Source: Patescibacteria group bacterium
GTDB taxonomy: Bacteria; Patescibacteriota; CPR2; UBA1875; CAIMLA01
DNA length: 50,871 bases
Assembly: GCA_028718325.1 (NCBI GenBank)
Contig: JAQUMB010000002.1
Location: 1-50,871, forward strand
Direction: 5' to 3'
The translations under genes and the position numbers were made by a program. The notes under the pieces were generated by a model. That model did not search any database, was not told the origin of the DNA, and saw nothing but the letters and a program-made list of their open reading frames with translations. Below are positions 948 through 22,999 of the stretch, one piece after another (position 1 is the first letter of the stretch; each line of letters starts with the position of its first letter).

Positions 948-1454
948 ATGAAGCATATTTTAGAAGTTCCACATCTTGTACAGTATTACAATATAGACGA
1001 TGAAAAATGGCAAAGTTGTTCTTGCGGTATTGTTTCTTTGGCAATGATCTTTGATTATTATTCGATTCCATTTGATCTTGATGACATGATCAACAGAGCC
1101 TTAAAGGATGATGGTTACATAAAGGGGGTGGGTTGGAAGCACCAGACTATAGTTGATTTAGCAATAAAATATGGGCTTAAGGCCTATCGAACGGAGAATG
1201 ATACTATTGAAAAGTTGATGGAGTCTCTAGAAAAAGATGAACCAGTAATAATCTCAATATATAAGGACTTCGATCTATCAAACGGTGGTCATCTAGCCGT
1301 ATTAAACGGTTATTATATAGCAAATCAGGAACTCATAGGGTTTTATGTAAACGACCCCGTAGGTGCTTCTTATAAGCATCAAAATCAGTTTATTAAGCTA
1401 GATAAGTTTCTCGAAGGCTGGAAAAAGCGGGCTATTTATGTTACAAAAGCATAA
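948..1454 (+). CDS. Stand-alone papain-like C39-family (Peptidase_C39_2-like) cysteine peptidase domain protein
   Basis: 168 aa. A candidate catalytic Cys lies in QSCSCGIVSLAMIFDYY and a His in GGHLAVLNGYY. There is no ABC-transporter fusion and no obvious signal peptide. Confidence 0.6.
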   Translation: MKHILEVPHLVQYYNIDDEKWQSCSCGIVSLAMIFDYYSIPFDLDDMINRALKDDGYIKGVGWKHQTIVDLAIKYGLKAYRTENDTIEKLMESLEKDEPVIISIYKDFDLSNGGHLAVLNGYYIANQELIGFYVNDPVGASYKHQNQFIKLDKFLEGWKKRAIYVTKA

Positions 1455-1456
1455 GA

Positions 1457-4312
1457 ATGAACAATAAATATAATCACAAAAAAATAGAGAAAAAGTGGCA
1501 AGAGATTTGGGCCAAGACAAAGCTTTATCAAGTTGATTTACACAAATCGGAGAATCCTTTTTATAATTTGATGATGTTTCCATACCCGAGCGGTGAATAT
1601 CTCCATCTCGGTCATGGCTATTCGTATAGTGGCGCAGACGTTTATGGCCGATTCATGCGATTATCAGGAAAGAATGTTTTTGAACCAATCGGTTACGATT
1701 CGTTTGGCTTGCCGGCTGAAAATTACGCTATCAAAGCAGGGGTACATCCGAAAGTTAGCATTGCTAAGAATATCGAAATTGCGAGAGAACAGCTAAAATC
1801 TTTCGGCTGTATGTTTGATTTTGAAAAAGAAGTGGTAACAAGCGACCCATCATATTACAAATGGACCCAATGGGTATTTCTGAAACTCTATGAGCACGGT
1901 TTGGCCTATCAGAAAGAGTCGCCGGTCAACTGGTGTCCGAATTGCAAGACCGTGCTTGCAAACGAACAGGTAATCAATGGGAAGTGTGAACGATGTGAAA
2001 CAGAAGTAATTCAGAAAAAGCTAAATCAATGGTTTTTCAAAATCACTGATTATGCGGAAAAACTTCTTAAAGGTTTAGATGATATTGACTGGCCGGAATC
2101 ATCAAAGATAAAGCAAAAAAACTGGATTGGCAAATCCACAGGTGTCGAATTTGAAATGGAGATTGATGGAAACAGGGAAAAATTGGGAGTATTTACTACT
2201 CGAATAGACACTGTCTATGGAATGACTTATGTAGTTATTGCACCGGAACACCCCCTGGTTGAGAAAATCACAACAGATAAGCAGAAAAAAGAAATCGAGA
2301 AATATCAAAGGAACACTCAAAAGTTAGCTGAAATTGAGCGTCAATCGACCGAAAAAGAAAAAACAGGTGTCTTTACCGGGGCATATGCCATAAATCCTTT
2401 TAATAATAAAAAAATTCCAATTTGGGTCGCCGACTATGTCATCTATTCCTATGGAACAGGGGCAGTTATGGCTGTGCCGGCTCATGATGAAAGAGATTTT
2501 GAGTTTGCTAAGAAATATGATCTGCCCATAAAAGAATCTATTATACCTAAGGTGATTGATAAGCATGATCCCCCAAAAGACGGTGCTGAAACAATATTCC
2601 GCCACGCAATCCAAGTTATTTTAATAAATCCAAAAAACAACAAAGTTTTGTGCCTCAAATGGAAAAAATTCCCTTGGACGACATTTATTACTGGTGGGGT
2701 TGAGGGGGATGAAGATACAATAGCCGCCTCGAAAAGAGAAACAATCGAGGAAACTGGCTATATTGATATTGAGTACGTTAAAACTTTAGGTGGGCCAGTA
2801 GAATCACATTTCTATGCAAACCATAAAGGGGTAAATCGTAAGGCTCTATTTACTGCGCTGGTTTTCCATCTCAAAAGTGAAAAAAAGGAAAAAATATCAG
2901 AAGAGGAGGCCGAAATCCATGAACTAGCCTGGGTTACTTGGGATGAACTTCACAAGGACAATAACGTAAAATGCGCCGAATATGATATTTGGCTTGATCG
3001 ATATTTCAACCAAGAGCATGCTTTTGCTGAAAAAGGAGTTTTGACTGACTCTGATAAATATACCGGCCTTACTTCCGAAGAAGCAATTAATAAAATAGCC
3101 GAATGGTTGGAAGAAAAAGGAATTGGGGGGACAAAGACGACTTATCGACTCCGTGATTGGTCATTTTCACGTCAAAGGTATTGGGGAGCACCGATCCCAA
3201 TTATTTATTGCGACAAATGTGGGGCTATCCCTGTCCCTGAAGAAGATTTACCCGTTGAGCTACCTGAAATTAAAGATTTTCGACCGGCAGGCTTGGGCGA
3301 AGGTCCTCTGGCCAGTGCTCCTGATTTTGTAAACACAAAATGTCCAAAATGTGGCGGGTCAGCAAAGAGGGAGACGGATACGATGGATACTTTTGTTGAT
3401 TCAAGTTTTTACTTTATGAGATATCCAAATGTTGGTGACGATACCCAAATGATGAACAAAAAAATTACTCAGAAATGGTTACCAGTTGATATGTATGTTG
3501 GTGGAGCAGAACATGTCACCATGCATCTTTTATATGCTAGATTTGTAACCAAAGCTTTTTATGATATCGGTCTTATCGGCTTTGACGAACCATTTATAAG
3601 ACTTCGACATCAGGGAATGATCCTAGGCCCGGATGGCAAGAAAATGAGTAAATCTAAAGGGAATATTGTTATTCCTGATGAAGTGATGAAAAAAGTCGGA
3701 GCAGATGCTTTCCGAACCTATATTTTGTTTATGGGGCAGTTCGAGGATGGTGGTCCATGGAATCCAAACGGGATTGCTGGTATCTCCAGATTTTTAGAAA
3801 AAATATGGCGATTATTTGATAGAGAAATTATTGATTCAGACACAGAGATTGAGGTTGATAGACTTTTAAACAAAGCGATTAAAAAGGTAGGCCAAGATAT
3901 TGCTGATTTCAAATTTAATACAGCCATCTCCTCGTTGATGATTTTGGTCAATGGCCTTTCTGAGGCAAAAAAAATTGATAAGAGAGTACTCGGAATACTG
4001 GCAATCTTGCTTTCGCCGTTTGCTCCACATCTTGCTGAGGAGGTATGGGAAAAGCTGGGCAATACTGATAGCGTTCATAACCAGACCTGGCCACGGTATG
4101 ATAAAAAATTAATTGAAGACGAAATGGGAATTATCGCTGTCCAGATAAATGGAAAAGTTCGTGACCAGATTTTGGTAGTCAAGGGGACAAAGGAAAATGA
4201 TATTTTAAAATTGGCCAAGGACTCGGAAAAAATAAAAAAATATCTACAAAATACAGATATTATTAAGGTTATTTACATCCCGGACAAGCTTTTGAGCCTT
4301 GTCACAAAGTAA
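1457..4312 (+). CDS. leuS: Leucyl-tRNA synthetase carrying an inserted Nudix domain
   Basis: PYPSGEYLHLGHGYSY (HIGH region), KMSKSKGN, the CP1 motif GTGAVMAVPAHDERDFEFAKKY and YRLRDWSFSRQRYWGAPIP. It is 951 aa. Confidence 0.97.
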   Translation: MNNKYNHKKIEKKWQEIWAKTKLYQVDLHKSENPFYNLMMFPYPSGEYLHLGHGYSYSGADVYGRFMRLSGKNVFEPIGYDSFGLPAENYAIKAGVHPKVSIAKNIEIAREQLKSFGCMFDFEKEVVTSDPSYYKWTQWVFLKLYEHGLAYQKESPVNWCPNCKTVLANEQVINGKCERCETEVIQKKLNQWFFKITDYAEKLLKGLDDIDWPESSKIKQKNWIGKSTGVEFEMEIDGNREKLGVFTTRIDTVYGMTYVVIAPEHPLVEKITTDKQKKEIEKYQRNTQKLAEIERQSTEKEKTGVFTGAYAINPFNNKKIPIWVADYVIYSYGTGAVMAVPAHDERDFEFAKKYDLPIKESIIPKVIDKHDPPKDGAETIFRHAIQVILINPKNNKVLCLKWKKFPWTTFITGGVEGDEDTIAASKRETIEETGYIDIEYVKTLGGPVESHFYANHKGVNRKALFTALVFHLKSEKKEKISEEEAEIHELAWVTWDELHKDNNVKCAEYDIWLDRYFNQEHAFAEKGVLTDSDKYTGLTSEEAINKIAEWLEEKGIGGTKTTYRLRDWSFSRQRYWGAPIPIIYCDKCGAIPVPEEDLPVELPEIKDFRPAGLGEGPLASAPDFVNTKCPKCGGSAKRETDTMDTFVDSSFYFMRYPNVGDDTQMMNKKITQKWLPVDMYVGGAEHVTMHLLYARFVTKAFYDIGLIGFDEPFIRLRHQGMILGPDGKKMSKSKGNIVIPDEVMKKVGADAFRTYILFMGQFEDGGPWNPNGIAGISRFLEKIWRLFDREIIDSDTEIEVDRLLNKAIKKVGQDIADFKFNTAISSLMILVNGLSEAKKIDKRVLGILAILLSPFAPHLAEEVWEKLGNTDSVHNQTWPRYDKKLIEDEMGIIAVQINGKVRDQILVVKGTKENDILKLAKDSEKIKKYLQNTDIIKVIYIPDKLLSLVTK
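2546..3028 (+). other. Nudix hydrolase domain inserted in-frame within the LeuRS CP1/editing region (Nudix box at nt 2693-2761)
   Basis: GGVEGDEDTIAASKRETIEETGY fits GX5EX7REUXEEXGU exactly. This position holds 161 codons where E. coli LeuRS has about 16 residues (between KYGLNIKPVI and EKGVLFNSGEF). Confidence 0.8.
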
Positions 4313-5058: not shown

Positions 5059-5550
5059 ATGGCATCCAACCGGCATCTCTCACGAATTATTGCGTTTCAG
5101 ACCATGTATGAATGGGAATTTTTGACTAATAAAATCCCTACACATGAAAGCAATATTAATAAAATTCGTCAGACTATTGAGCCGATTTTAGAAAGAAATT
5201 ACCAAGAATTTTCCTCTAGTGTTGAAAATAGGGATTTTATTGATCAGTTAGTTTGGGGGGTTGTAGATAACAAGGAAAAAATTGACTCTATCATCACCCC
5301 TGCTGCTCCAGAATGGCCGATTGAACAGATTGCTTTGATAGACCTTATTATCTTAAGGATGGGGATATACGAATTATTATTTGCGAGGGAAGTTCCACCA
5401 AAAGTTGCCATCAATGAAGCTGTAGAATTGGCTAAAGCGTTTGGTGGACAAAATTCTTCCAAGTTTATTAATGGAGTTCTTGGTACTGTTTATCGAGCCA
5501 GCGATATATATAATCCAGATGATGACAAAAAAATTGAAGGCAAAAAATGA
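5059..5550 (+). CDS. nusB: Transcription antitermination factor NusB
   Basis: [13 protein letters not shown] at the N-terminus and [26 protein letters not shown]. Confidence 0.9.
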
Positions 5551-22098: not shown

Positions 22099-22185
22099 TG
22101 GTGCCCGAGGCGGGACTCGAACCCGCAAGATGTTGCCATCAACGGATTTTAAGTCCGTCGCGTATACCAATTCCGCCACCCGGGC
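22099..22185 (-). tRNA. tRNA-Leu (anticodon UAA), CCA encoded
   Basis: Hand-folded from the reverse complement GCCCGGGTGGCGGAATTGGTATACGCGACGGACTTAAAATCCGT...GGGCACCA. The anticodon loop is CTTAAAA and the variable arm is long. Confidence 0.93.
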
Positions 22186-22253
22186 CTTTCACTGTATTCA
22201 GGGTGAACTGTACTAAAGCAAGCTTACATTGAGACCAAATTAATCGGTCGAAA

Positions 22254-22327
22254 TGGAGGCGTCGCCGGGATTCGCACCCGGGTAGACGGTTTTGCAGACC
22301 GTTGCCTAACTCCTCGGCCACGACGCC
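22254..22327 (-). tRNA. tRNA-Cys (anticodon GCA), CCA encoded
   Basis: Reverse complement GGCGTCGTGGCCGAGGAGTTAGGCAACGGTCTGCAAAACCGT...CGACGCCTCCA. The anticodon loop is CTGCAAA and the discriminator is U73. Confidence 0.93.
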
Positions 22328-22383
22328 TTATTATGTGTACTTGGCTCGAGTTTAAGCGTTATGTAGCACTTCGTCATTGAAAA

Positions 22384-22459
22384 TGGAGCGAGAGACGGGG
22401 TTCGAACCCGCGACCTCAACCTTGGCAAGGTTGCGCTCTACCAGCTAAGCTACTCTCGC
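22384..22459 (-). tRNA. tRNA-Gly (anticodon GCC), CCA encoded
   Basis: Reverse complement GCGAGAGTAGCTTAGCTGGTAGAGCGCAACCTTGCCAAGGTTG...CTCTCGCTCCA. The anticodon loop is TTGCCAA. Confidence 0.93.
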
Positions 22460-22573
22460 ACGTCAGCATTTGCTGACGTATTTCGTAGGTTGACTAGCAT
22501 CAACTACTTCATACTTTCGCAAAGCTTCCTTTTTCTCAAAAATCCTTCGATTTTTTGGGAGCCAAAATATATT

Positions 22574-22649
<76 letters not shown>

Positions 22650-22791
22650 ACGTCAGAATTCTCTTTATGTTCTCGCAAGTTTTCAACTTACTGTGGTTCT
22701 TCCTTTTCCGACAAAATCAGAAGCATTTTGTCGGGTAATCTAATTTTAAAGGATTTCTTTGAAATTCTCAAAAACTATTTACAAGAAACAA

Positions 22792-22868
22792 TGGTGGGCG
22801 ATGAGGGATTCGAACCCCCGACCCTCTCGGTGTAAACGAGATGCTCTAGCCAGCTGAGCTAATCGCCC
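22792..22868 (-). tRNA. tRNA-Val (anticodon UAC), CCA encoded
   Basis: Reverse complement GGGCGATTAGCTCAGCTGGCTAGAGCATCTCGTTTACACCGAGA...ATCGCCCACCA. The anticodon loop is TTTACAC. Confidence 0.93.
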
Positions 22869-22912
22869 GAAACTTTCATTATTTAGGAGATAAACGATGT
22901 AGGTTTGCGAAA

Positions 22913-22999
22913 TGGTGCGGACGAGAGGACTCGAACCTCCAAGACCTTACGGCCACTAGCCCCTCATGCTAGCGCGTATACCAATTCCGCCACGTCCGC
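22913..22999 (-). tRNA. tRNA-Leu (anticodon GAG), CCA encoded
   Basis: Reverse complement GCGGACGTGGCGGAATTGGTATACGCGCTAGCATGAGGGGCTAG...CGTCCGCACCA. The anticodon loop is ATGAGGG and the variable arm is long. Confidence 0.92.

Follow-up and report, generated by a model that had tools for sequence, protein, structure and literature searches.

Results

An in-frame Nudix domain within the editing region of a leucyl-tRNA synthetase

The window analyzed here is a whole stretch of 50,871 nucleotides from a Patescibacteria group bacterium (assembly GCA_028718325.1, contig JAQUMB010000002.1, positions 1 to 50,871 of the forward strand). It contains leuS, the gene for a leucyl-tRNA synthetase (LeuRS), and the subject of this study is a Nudix domain that lies inside the editing (CP1) region of this synthetase. 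The gene is a single uninterrupted open reading frame (ORF), 1457..4312 on the forward strand, with a product of 951 amino acids (aa). A previous reading of the same DNA, made from its letters alone and hereafter called the sequence-only reading, had already described the frame as continuous across the insert, and we agree with it. The features used below are as follows.

1457..4312, including the stop codon, forward strand: leuS, bacterial-type leucyl-tRNA synthetase, 951 aa (continuous ORF, matches to hidden Markov models (HMMs), AlphaFold2 (AF2) model)
1604..1615, forward strand: class I HIGH signature, here HLGH, aa 50-53 (read in the sequence)
2117..2560, forward strand: portion of the CP1 editing domain that precedes the insert, aa 221-368 (PF13603, E=2.6e-68)
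2195..2212, forward strand: threonine-rich editing motif of CP1, TTRIDT, aa 247-252 (read in the sequence)
2483..2497, forward strand: CP1 editing motif HDERD, aa 343-347 (read in the sequence)
2546..3028, forward strand: inserted Nudix module, aa 364-524, with the linker PKVIDKHDPP at its N terminus, then the Nudix fold, then a helix at its C terminus (PF00293, AF2, Foldseek)
2600..2602, forward strand: R382, subfamily-invariant arginine of the first long strand (invariant in alignments A1 and A3)
2693..2761, forward strand: Nudix box G413-Y435 (GGVEGDEDTIAASKRETIEETGY), with catalytic R427, E428, E431 and E432 (from the sequence)
2804..2839, forward strand: X-loop and subfamily signature SHFYANHKGVNR, aa 450-461 (conservation, hhalign)
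2906..2932, forward strand: E484, H488 and W492, located in the final strand and helix of the fold (conservation)
3029..3187, forward strand: CP1 return segment and linker to the catalytic core, EKGVL...YRLRDWSFSRQRYWG, aa 525-577 (aligned with solved LeuRS)
3641..3655, forward strand: class I KMSKS signature, aa 729-733 (read in the sequence)

Against TIGR00396, the model of bacterial leuS, the product scored 1005.7 bits for a cut-off of 548.4, in a match that the insert splits into two stretches. It also matched the Pfam families PF00133, PF09334, PF13603 and PF08264, the latter (anticodon-binding) at aa 803-912. In a 64-sequence alignment (A3), H50, G52 and H53 of the HIGH signature were invariant, and so were K729, S731 and K732 of the KMSKS signature. 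Regarding the editing site, T247, T248, R249, D251 and T252 were 100% conserved in the 42 LeuRS that have a Nudix module; in the 21 LeuRS that lack it, the first four were 100% conserved and T252 95%. H343, D344, R346 and D347 were 100% conserved in both groups. As judged from its sequence, the gene is that of a complete bacterial-type LeuRS, with intact HIGH, KMSKS and CP1 editing motifs. Because the editing motifs are conserved at 95-100% whether or not the module is present, we read the enzyme as a working LeuRS with an intact editing site. For the same reason we rejected the possibility that the Nudix domain substitutes for a dead editing site, and the suggestion that it replaces editing had to be abandoned.

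The Nudix family model PF00293 matched aa 384-502 of the whole protein (E=1.5e-12, 48.1 bits, gathering score 21.1), and it matched the 161 codons of nt 2546-3028 taken alone (E=6.2e-14, 52.6 bits). The domain splits the editing-domain model PF13603 at position 146, the match to that model covering profile positions 1-146 of 185. A complete Nudix domain within CP1 was what the sequence-only reading had proposed, and the CP1 motifs flanking it are exactly as quoted there. The flanks align residue for residue with the solved LeuRS of T. thermophilus (1H3N/2V0C; residues 322-362 and 374-431) and E. coli (4AQ7/4ARC; chain residues 340-381 and 392-450), and the likeness includes HIGH, KMSKS, the threonine-rich motif and HDxRD. 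In contrast, where the solved enzymes have a CP1 loop of 10-11 residues, this one has ~157 residues of Nudix domain; the short loop given for the E. coli enzyme in the sequence-only reading agrees with this. None of the LeuRS chains in the PDB aligned over the insert at E<=1e-5.

The Nudix box had been called letter-perfect. All the fixed letters of GX5EX7REUXEEXGU are indeed present at nt 2693-2761 (G413, E419, R427, E428, E431, E432 and G434), but the U positions are T429 and Y435 and not I, L or V; Y435 is typical of the family to which the module belongs. In the X-loop, F452 and Y453 stand 17 and 18 residues past the box and are followed by K457-x2-N460-R461. An AF2 model of the module (aa 362-528, 43-sequence alignment) had a pLDDT of 93.7 and a pTM of 0.86, with the N-terminal linker strand and the C-terminal helix both ordered. 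When this model was compared with the PDB using Foldseek, 489 matches were obtained at E<=1e-3, and all 50 that were listed are Nudix hydrolases, the best being 2AZW (TM 0.70/0.79, 21% identity). In the full-length AF2 model of LeuRS (pLDDT 89.6, pTM 0.80), the junction blocks had pLDDT values of 91-93. The high junction values together with the full-length pTM suggest that the domain would be integrated rigidly rather than tethered. On the strength of family matches and models, the insert is a complete folded Nudix domain, with predicted pyrophosphohydrolase activity, that replaces a surface loop of CP1.

Authenticity and age of the fusion

An assembly chimera, or a recent insertion by a mobile or intein-like element, might produce such a gene, and the occurrence of the module elsewhere at several positions and in several copies is superficially reminiscent of mobility. 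We regard the probability of this as negligible. Four source collections contain the identical protein (P0007, there called 'class I tRNA ligase family protein [Patescibacteria group bacterium]'), all on one 281-kb contig. A LeuRS from another assembly, 76% identical (P0008, locus L084), has the insert and lies in a matching neighbourhood, gdh - (Peptidase_C39_2) - leuS - yceD - rpmF - nusB - rnc - smc, so that independent assemblies share architecture and surroundings. The frame is unbroken, and the GC content of the insert (0.395) is that of the flanking parts of the gene (0.385 and 0.393), as had been stated of its base composition. No repeat pair with one copy per junction was found around the insert, the sole junction feature being a 19-nt imperfect palindrome (3004-3033) that spans the 3' junction. 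No splice-junction residues (Cys/Ser/Thr, His-Asn) were seen by eye at PKVID... or ...HAFA/EKG, no HINT or intein HMM search having been run, and the fold is Nudix, not HINT.

Sequence divergence argues in the same direction. Synonymous sites have reached saturation when the window is compared with L084 (pS, the proportion of synonymous differences, 0.76-0.84), whereas the corresponding nonsynonymous value, pN, is 0.083 for the insert versus 0.125 for the N-terminal and 0.191 for the C-terminal part of the gene. As pN is lower in the insert than in its flanks, the insert is under purifying selection at least as strong as that acting on the synthetase, which speaks against a recent insertion. 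We therefore rejected an artefact or misassembly, in view of the identical protein in four source collections, the independent orthologues and the continuous frame, as well as a recent mobile insertion or intein, in view of the missing repeat pair, the same GC content and the Nudix fold. That the fusion is an established one, as the sequence-only reading had it, is supported by these pN values and by the presence of the module in independent assemblies and many lineages. The insert is cleanly absent from a 75%-identical orthologue in a matching neighbourhood, and P0009, an 803-aa orthologue in the window's gene neighbourhood, lacks the module.

Incidentally, we noticed that a gene for a 168-aa Peptidase_C39_2-like cysteine peptidase (window 948-1454, forward strand) stops 2 nt ahead of the leuS start codon. 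The pairing of C39 and leuS also occurs at an insert-less orthologous locus (L085), which shares with the window the whole order gdh - C39 - leuS - yceD - rpmF - nusB - rnc - smc; L084 has the same order, with no C39 gene called. Further along the window, a tRNA gene cluster (22099-22999, reverse strand) comprises Leu-TAA, Cys-GCA, Gly-GCC, Phe-GAA, Val-TAC and Leu-GAG, that is, six tRNAs, two of which are tRNA(Leu) substrates of LeuRS.

Conservation of the catalytic residues

Conservation was calculated on 249 near-complete modules, taken from all contexts and aligned to an HMM. In the Nudix box, the values were 99% for G413, 98% for G414, 84% for E419, 86% for R427, 99% for E428, 98% for E431, 100% for E432, 99% for G434 and 93% for Y435. 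Residues of the subfamily signature were conserved to a similar degree (R382 98%, K457 99%, N460 97%, R461 88%, L472 97%, E484 85%, H488 84% and W492 98%). In the X-loop, position 452 is F in 71% of the modules and position 453 is Y in 53%. Mean column identity across modules is ~40%, and the figures also hold separately for the copies at different LeuRS sites and for the free-standing copies. Since catalytic and signature residues are conserved against an overall identity of only ~40%, the pattern is that of an active enzyme and not of a structural relic. We consider it very probable, from conservation and models, that LeuRS carries here an active accessory Nudix domain while remaining a working synthetase.

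The alternative is that the Nudix fold has no catalytic role and serves as a nucleotide-sensing, structural or tRNA-binding domain. The NUDT9-H domain of TRPM2 and the ligand-binding domain of NrtR are precedents for binding Nudix folds, and some copies of the module do have a weakened box, namely the second copies at another LeuRS site described below. Reuse of the fold for binding is also mentioned in the Nudix clan review (PMC5389931). Yet binding-only Nudix domains typically lose their catalytic residues, whereas E428, E431 and E432 (98-100%), R427 and E484 are kept in every context, and this conservation makes a non-catalytic domain very unlikely.

Comparison with curated models did not assign the active domain to a known family. 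The RppH models NF001935, NF001936, NF001937 and NF001938 gave 16.7-18.7 bits for cut-offs of 116-259, the NudB, NudI and IDI models 16.7-18.6 bits for cut-offs of 95-127, and none of the curated MutT/8-oxo-dGTPase models was among the NCBIfam matches at E<=0.01. PADLOC returned no match, hence no link to a defence system, and PHROGs returned generic Nudix matches only. Because every LeuRS and Nudix superfamily feature tested was found in the protein, while the curated RppH, NudB, NudI and IDI models failed and MutT was unmatched, the module is predicted to work like a Nudix pyrophosphatase and belongs to no characterized subfamily.

Distribution, sites and copy number in LeuRS

The module is present in many Patescibacteria LeuRS. 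PF00293 was found in roughly 100 of the best 120 LeuRS relatives, among which the named ones include Wolfebacteria, Berkelbacteria, Gracilibacteria and 'Patescibacteria group'; this sample is biased toward the insert because the query contained it. An exhaustive phmmer search with the insert against 1.84 billion representative proteins returned only 352 matches at E<=1e-3, and most of the best 150, which were mapped, are LeuRS. A scan of one genome per GTDB species, using 10 close sequences as query, gave at least 143 confirmed matches. The 80 loci kept come almost all from Patescibacteria, under the labels Saccharibacteria, Berkelbacteria, Paceibacterota, Parcubacteria, Moraniibacteriota and Taylor-, Kaiser-, Adler- and Nomurabacteria.

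A LeuRS-Nudix architecture was not known to the sequence-only reading. Likewise, we found no paper on a LeuRS-Nudix fusion, or on any aminoacyl-tRNA synthetase-Nudix fusion, in open-access papers and bioRxiv, and neither 'tRNA' nor 'synthetase' occurs in the comprehensive Nudix clan review (PMC5389931). The architecture is not rare, though: it is already public in at least ~180 mapped LeuRS copies, named only leucine--tRNA ligase or 'class I tRNA ligase family protein'. The sequences themselves are known in large numbers, and the architecture may have been described elsewhere.

Two insertion sites account for most loci. Site B is the CP1 loop used in the window, and site A is the very start of CP1, equivalent to aa ~223-240 of the window's enzyme. 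The 80 loci are distributed as follows.

One copy at site B: 66 of 80 loci (including the mini-protein L068, see below)
Copy at site A only: 5 of 80
Copies at A and B: 2 of 80
Two copies at A and one at B: 1 of 80
Tandem pair at B: 1 of 80
Free-standing proteins of ~170 aa: 2 of 80
Mini-proteins L073 and L078: 2 of 80
Ambiguous: 1 of 80

Site A is used in the proteins P0127, P0129, P0130, P0135 and P0165 and at loci L015, L024, L027, L032, L045, L052, L075, L076 and L079. The module at this site is alone, in tandem or accompanied by a site-B copy, which brings the number to as many as three per LeuRS. The second copies at site A form a clade of their own by neighbor joining (NJ); their box is weakened, with A, K or T in place of R427 and GGPE..Q in place of the usual start. 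A third site was found in P0038, whose module (aa 537-693) follows FYF.RYP.VG (window aa ~660, nt ~3435), just ahead of the KMSKS-bearing core. This module and the one in the window share 58% identity, the IPK(L/V)(V/I)D linker included, and the site-B loop of P0038 is short. Comparison of these sequences suggests that the module moved within leuS.

We also built NJ trees, which rest on short sequences and are indicative only. In the tree of the LeuRS core, insert-less enzymes were scattered among insert-bearing ones, and the window grouped with the insert-less P0015, P0013 and P0009-P0012, which keep 'IPKV' and ~8 residues at the insertion site. This interspersion, together with the presence of P0009 in the window's gene neighbourhood, led us to view the module as an accessory element repeatedly lost, gained or moved. 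Moreover, P0014 has a LeuRS 65% identical to the window's and a module only 36% identical, while the reverse holds for P0065 (LeuRS 52%, module 62%); module relationships would thus not simply follow those of the host.

Two groups of loci call for a comment. L042, L049 and L060 bear the labels Woesearchaeota, Pacearchaeota and Methanosarcinales, and their module-containing LeuRS is of bacterial type. Mis-binning of Patescibacteria contigs, or horizontal transfer, is the probable explanation, and an archaeal LeuRS-Nudix was therefore set aside. At L001, L002 and L003, the LeuRS-Nudix gene is broken into four to eight short ORFs and the neighbouring genes are broken too, with apparently two Nudix copies at L001; these contigs are error-rich assemblies or decaying genomes.

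Other hosts of the module and other inserts in LeuRS

The module is not restricted to LeuRS. P0204, a class II prolyl-tRNA synthetase (ProRS; PF00587, PF03129, PF09180), has it between the anticodon-binding and C-terminal domains, and four further ProRS (P0276-P0279) have the same arrangement, the five proteins spanning 641-674 aa. About 115 close ProRS relatives, of ~480 aa, are without it; the named ones are Nanoarchaeota or Woesearchaeota (DPANN archaea). Taking all hosts, sequence comparison delineates a distinct Nudix subfamily, almost confined to the LeuRS of Patescibacteria (candidate phyla radiation), a small ProRS clade and a few free-standing proteins.

In metagenome-assembled genomes labeled Clostridia, we found proteins of ~290 aa that have no synthetase core and consist of the C-terminal half of CP1, in degenerate form, then the module and the return segment of CP1. 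Such half-CP1 and Nudix mini-proteins are encoded at L068 (3626-4525), L073 (3629-4474) and L078 (3650-4510); P0163 and P0272 belong here. Their HD.RD motif has become HNQEH, HIQKH or HVKEH. According to ORF translations inspected by eye, the neighbours are a Ham1/ITPase-like gene at L068, a MutT-like Nudix gene at L073, and cmk and a CYTH-like gene at L078.

Small Nudix genes were also seen between nusB and rnc at four Saccharibacteria-labeled loci (L017 7422-7964, L034 4358-4942, L067 6517-7035, L076 6884-7381). They matched the HMM of the module, and we considered them as possible free-standing copies of it beside leuS; we rejected this, as their sequences lack K-x2-N-R and represent a different Nudix family. 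In the window there is no gene between nusB and rnc, which overlap at 5547-5550.

Other domains have been inserted into Patescibacteria LeuRS, for example, in P0056 (aa 256-355), P0092 (aa 246-376) and P0078 (aa 589-752). They comprise an alpha/beta Ser-hydrolase and an ASCH domain at the start of CP1, that is, at site A, and a HAD_2 domain in the C-terminal half. P0037 has a different insert of ~150 residues without Pfam match (aa ~375-520) at the CP1 loop used in the window. The extreme case is a Taylorbacteria LeuRS of 1735 aa (L024, 3239-8443), which combines three Nudix domains with an alpha/beta hydrolase and a HAD domain. From these sequences, Patescibacteria LeuRS appears to collect hydrolase domains.

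This situation raises the possibility that the Nudix domain is a passenger, that is, a house-cleaning or nucleotide-salvage pyrophosphatase unlinked to leucylation, lodged in permissive loops of LeuRS, an essential and constitutive host that would secure its expression in very small genomes. The unrelated domains occupying the same sites (alpha/beta Ser-hydrolase, ASCH, HAD, the insert of P0037) fit this idea. So does the lack of a required geometry, the module being found at three or more LeuRS positions and in ProRS, as do its dispensability in 75%-identical orthologues, the existence of free-standing versions and the Ham1/ITPase-like, MutT-like Nudix, cmk and CYTH-like neighbours of the mini-proteins. 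Yet one would expect to meet a random passenger in many other proteins, whereas the subfamily is nearly confined to synthetases, with LeuRS making up most of the best 150 of 352 matches, and a class I and a class II synthetase acquired it independently. Up to three copies are kept per LeuRS, the module stays joined to a degenerate CP1 remnant even where the synthetase core is gone, and its packing is predicted to be rigid. We therefore hold a passenger to be unlikely, although it is the main rival to a function tied to the synthetase.

Candidate substrates of the Nudix domain

We then considered what the active domain might hydrolyze. In profile searches of PDB sequences, the best match was the E. 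faecalis MutT/nudix protein 2AZW (5.8e-9), followed by the decapping effector AvrM14 (3e-8) and a lupin Ap4A (diadenosine tetraphosphate) hydrolase (5e-8). 2AZW, which is best by sequence profile as well as by structure, matches over nearly its full length, including the C-terminal helix, but is without the K-x2-N-R signature in the alignment to the module. It gives no information about substrate because the PDB lists it only as 'MutT/nudix family protein'. In the Foldseek list, E. coli RppH, the Chlamydia Ap4A hydrolase CT771, human NUDT2 and the T. thermophilus Ap6A hydrolase Ndx1 rank 2nd-42nd, with TM values of 0.5-0.68 and 13-21% identity, and NudI, MutT1 and ADP-ribose pyrophosphatases are interleaved with them. 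With the asymmetrical Ap4A hydrolases and RppH (NUDT2 3U53/4IJX, CT771 4MPO, RppH 4S2X, Ndx1 1VC8), the module shares the fold and the catalytic box. It differs from them in its own signature (R382, W..K..W, F[YF]A.HK..NR, E...H...W), in being embedded in a synthetase rather than free-standing, and in failing the curated RppH models. Using hhalign, the module aligned with human NUDT2 (sequence per PDB 3U53) ungapped from the box through the X-loop, which placed F452 on Y82 (+17) and K457 on K87 (+22). According to the Nudix clan review, the X-loop has a role in substrate specificity, and a Tyr ~17 residues past the box correlates with activity on dinucleoside polyphosphates (ApnA) (PMC5389931).

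The nature of the hosts provides a second line of argument. Capture by both class I and class II synthetases argues for a substrate related to features that these enzymes share (ATP, aminoacyl-adenylate chemistry, tRNA) and not to CP1. Aminoacyl-tRNA synthetases make Ap4A and related dinucleotides through the reaction of their bound aminoacyl-adenylate with ATP or a different nucleotide. In our proposal, the Nudix domain would be a hydrolase that depends on Mg2+ and is rigidly fixed next to the editing domain, and it would cleave some nucleoside-polyphosphate compound that arises at the synthetase. Its likeliest substrates would be dinucleoside polyphosphates of the Ap4A, Ap3A or Ap4N type, and a by-product or alarmone would in this way be destroyed where it is produced. 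We favour this clearance in cis because the nearest characterized relatives are RppH and ApnA hydrolases, the X-loop aligns with that of NUDT2, and two synthetase classes captured the module. The sequence-only reading had advanced the same idea, alongside a new accessory activity; it gains modest support from the Ap4A-hydrolase-like X-loop, the RppH and ApnA-hydrolase structural neighbours and the recurrence of the module in the unrelated ProRS. In its complete form, an active Nudix domain beside the editing domain that cleaves synthetase-derived dinucleoside polyphosphates, we see the proposal as possible, at somewhat less than an even chance; ApnA-type compounds as the substrate class, judged from sequence, are a tentative assignment.

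Several points weigh against cis-clearance. Identity to any solved Nudix protein is 13-21%, and TM values of 0.5-0.7 are generic for the fold. The residue at +17 is Phe, and not Tyr, in 71% of the modules, and the thresholds of the curated RppH models were far from reached. The module is not essential to aminoacylation, since close relatives do without it. That the same LeuRS sites also accommodate alpha/beta hydrolase, ASCH and HAD domains is equally compatible with a merely permissive carrier, and the clearance of a by-product does not obviously call for one to three copies per protein.

Another possibility was that the domain acts on RNA ends, in the manner of RppH, NudC or Dcp2, and strips tRNA(Leu), or RNAs that the synthetase binds, of a 5' triphosphate, an Np4N cap, an NAD cap or another group linked by pyrophosphate. 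After 2AZW, E. coli RppH dominates the Foldseek list, RNA-bound entries included; AvrM14 is the second-best PDB sequence match, in an alignment that spans the K..R signature; both hosts bind tRNA, and the LeuRS modules cluster around CP1, which handles the acceptor end of the tRNA. However, the curated RppH models score the module far below their thresholds, and since RppH also hydrolyzes ApnA, these matches fit an action on RNA ends and cis-clearance alike. Furthermore, RNase P normally leaves bacterial tRNAs with a 5' monophosphate, and the ProRS module, located between the anticodon-binding and C-terminal domains, is distant from the acceptor-end side. We regard an RNA-end enzyme as improbable and retain the clearance of dinucleoside polyphosphates as the favoured reading.

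Discussion

The closest architectural precedent that we found is NCBIfam NF040702 (isoleucine--tRNA ligase, N-acetyltransferase domain-containing), present among the NCBIfam matches of the leuS product. It is a class I synthetase of the same subclass with an extra enzyme domain, an arrangement frequent enough to have been given a curated model, but this domain is GNAT and not Nudix, and the host is isoleucyl-tRNA synthetase and not LeuRS. No curated NCBIfam model for a LeuRS with a Nudix domain was matched. As for logic, the proposed function resembles the animal lysyl-tRNA synthetase (LysRS)/Ap4A/NUDT2 signaling axis, in which the synthetase makes Ap4A and a Nudix enzyme removes it. That axis involves two separate proteins and LysRS, whereas here a single polypeptide would do both and the hosts are LeuRS and ProRS.

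A wider proposition would be that the portable, synthetase-associated Nudix module represents an unrecognized accessory activity of aminoacyl-tRNA synthetases in ultra-small symbionts (LeuRS of Patescibacteria, DPANN-related ProRS), destroying Ap4A-type alarmones, Np4N caps or a tRNA pyrophosphate adduct. In some lineages, LeuRS would then be a multi-hydrolase platform around the editing domain, where an alpha/beta hydrolase, HAD and ASCH join one to three Nudix domains to form a nucleotide-level quality-control or signaling layer coupled to leucine charging. This is speculative, and we consider it rather doubtful as a whole.

In cells, Ap4A-type dinucleotides are made chiefly by synthetases, and how production and removal of the alarmone are coupled is still debated. 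A single polypeptide that unites a synthetase with a conserved, probably active Nudix hydrolase offers a direct experimental handle on this question. The fusion recurs in two unrelated synthetase classes, in ultra-small bacteria and in a ProRS clade whose named relatives are ultra-small archaea. Specialists may be surprised by the multi-site and multi-copy pattern, by the recurrence in ProRS and by a LeuRS that reaches 1735 aa with three Nudix domains. The tolerance of the CP1 loop matters for LeuRS-directed antibiotics and for enzyme engineering, and identification of the substrate would annotate hundreds of database proteins now named only tRNA ligases. Last, the accumulation of hydrolases around CP1 of LeuRS bears on how minimal genomes may gain function by inserting domains into essential enzymes.

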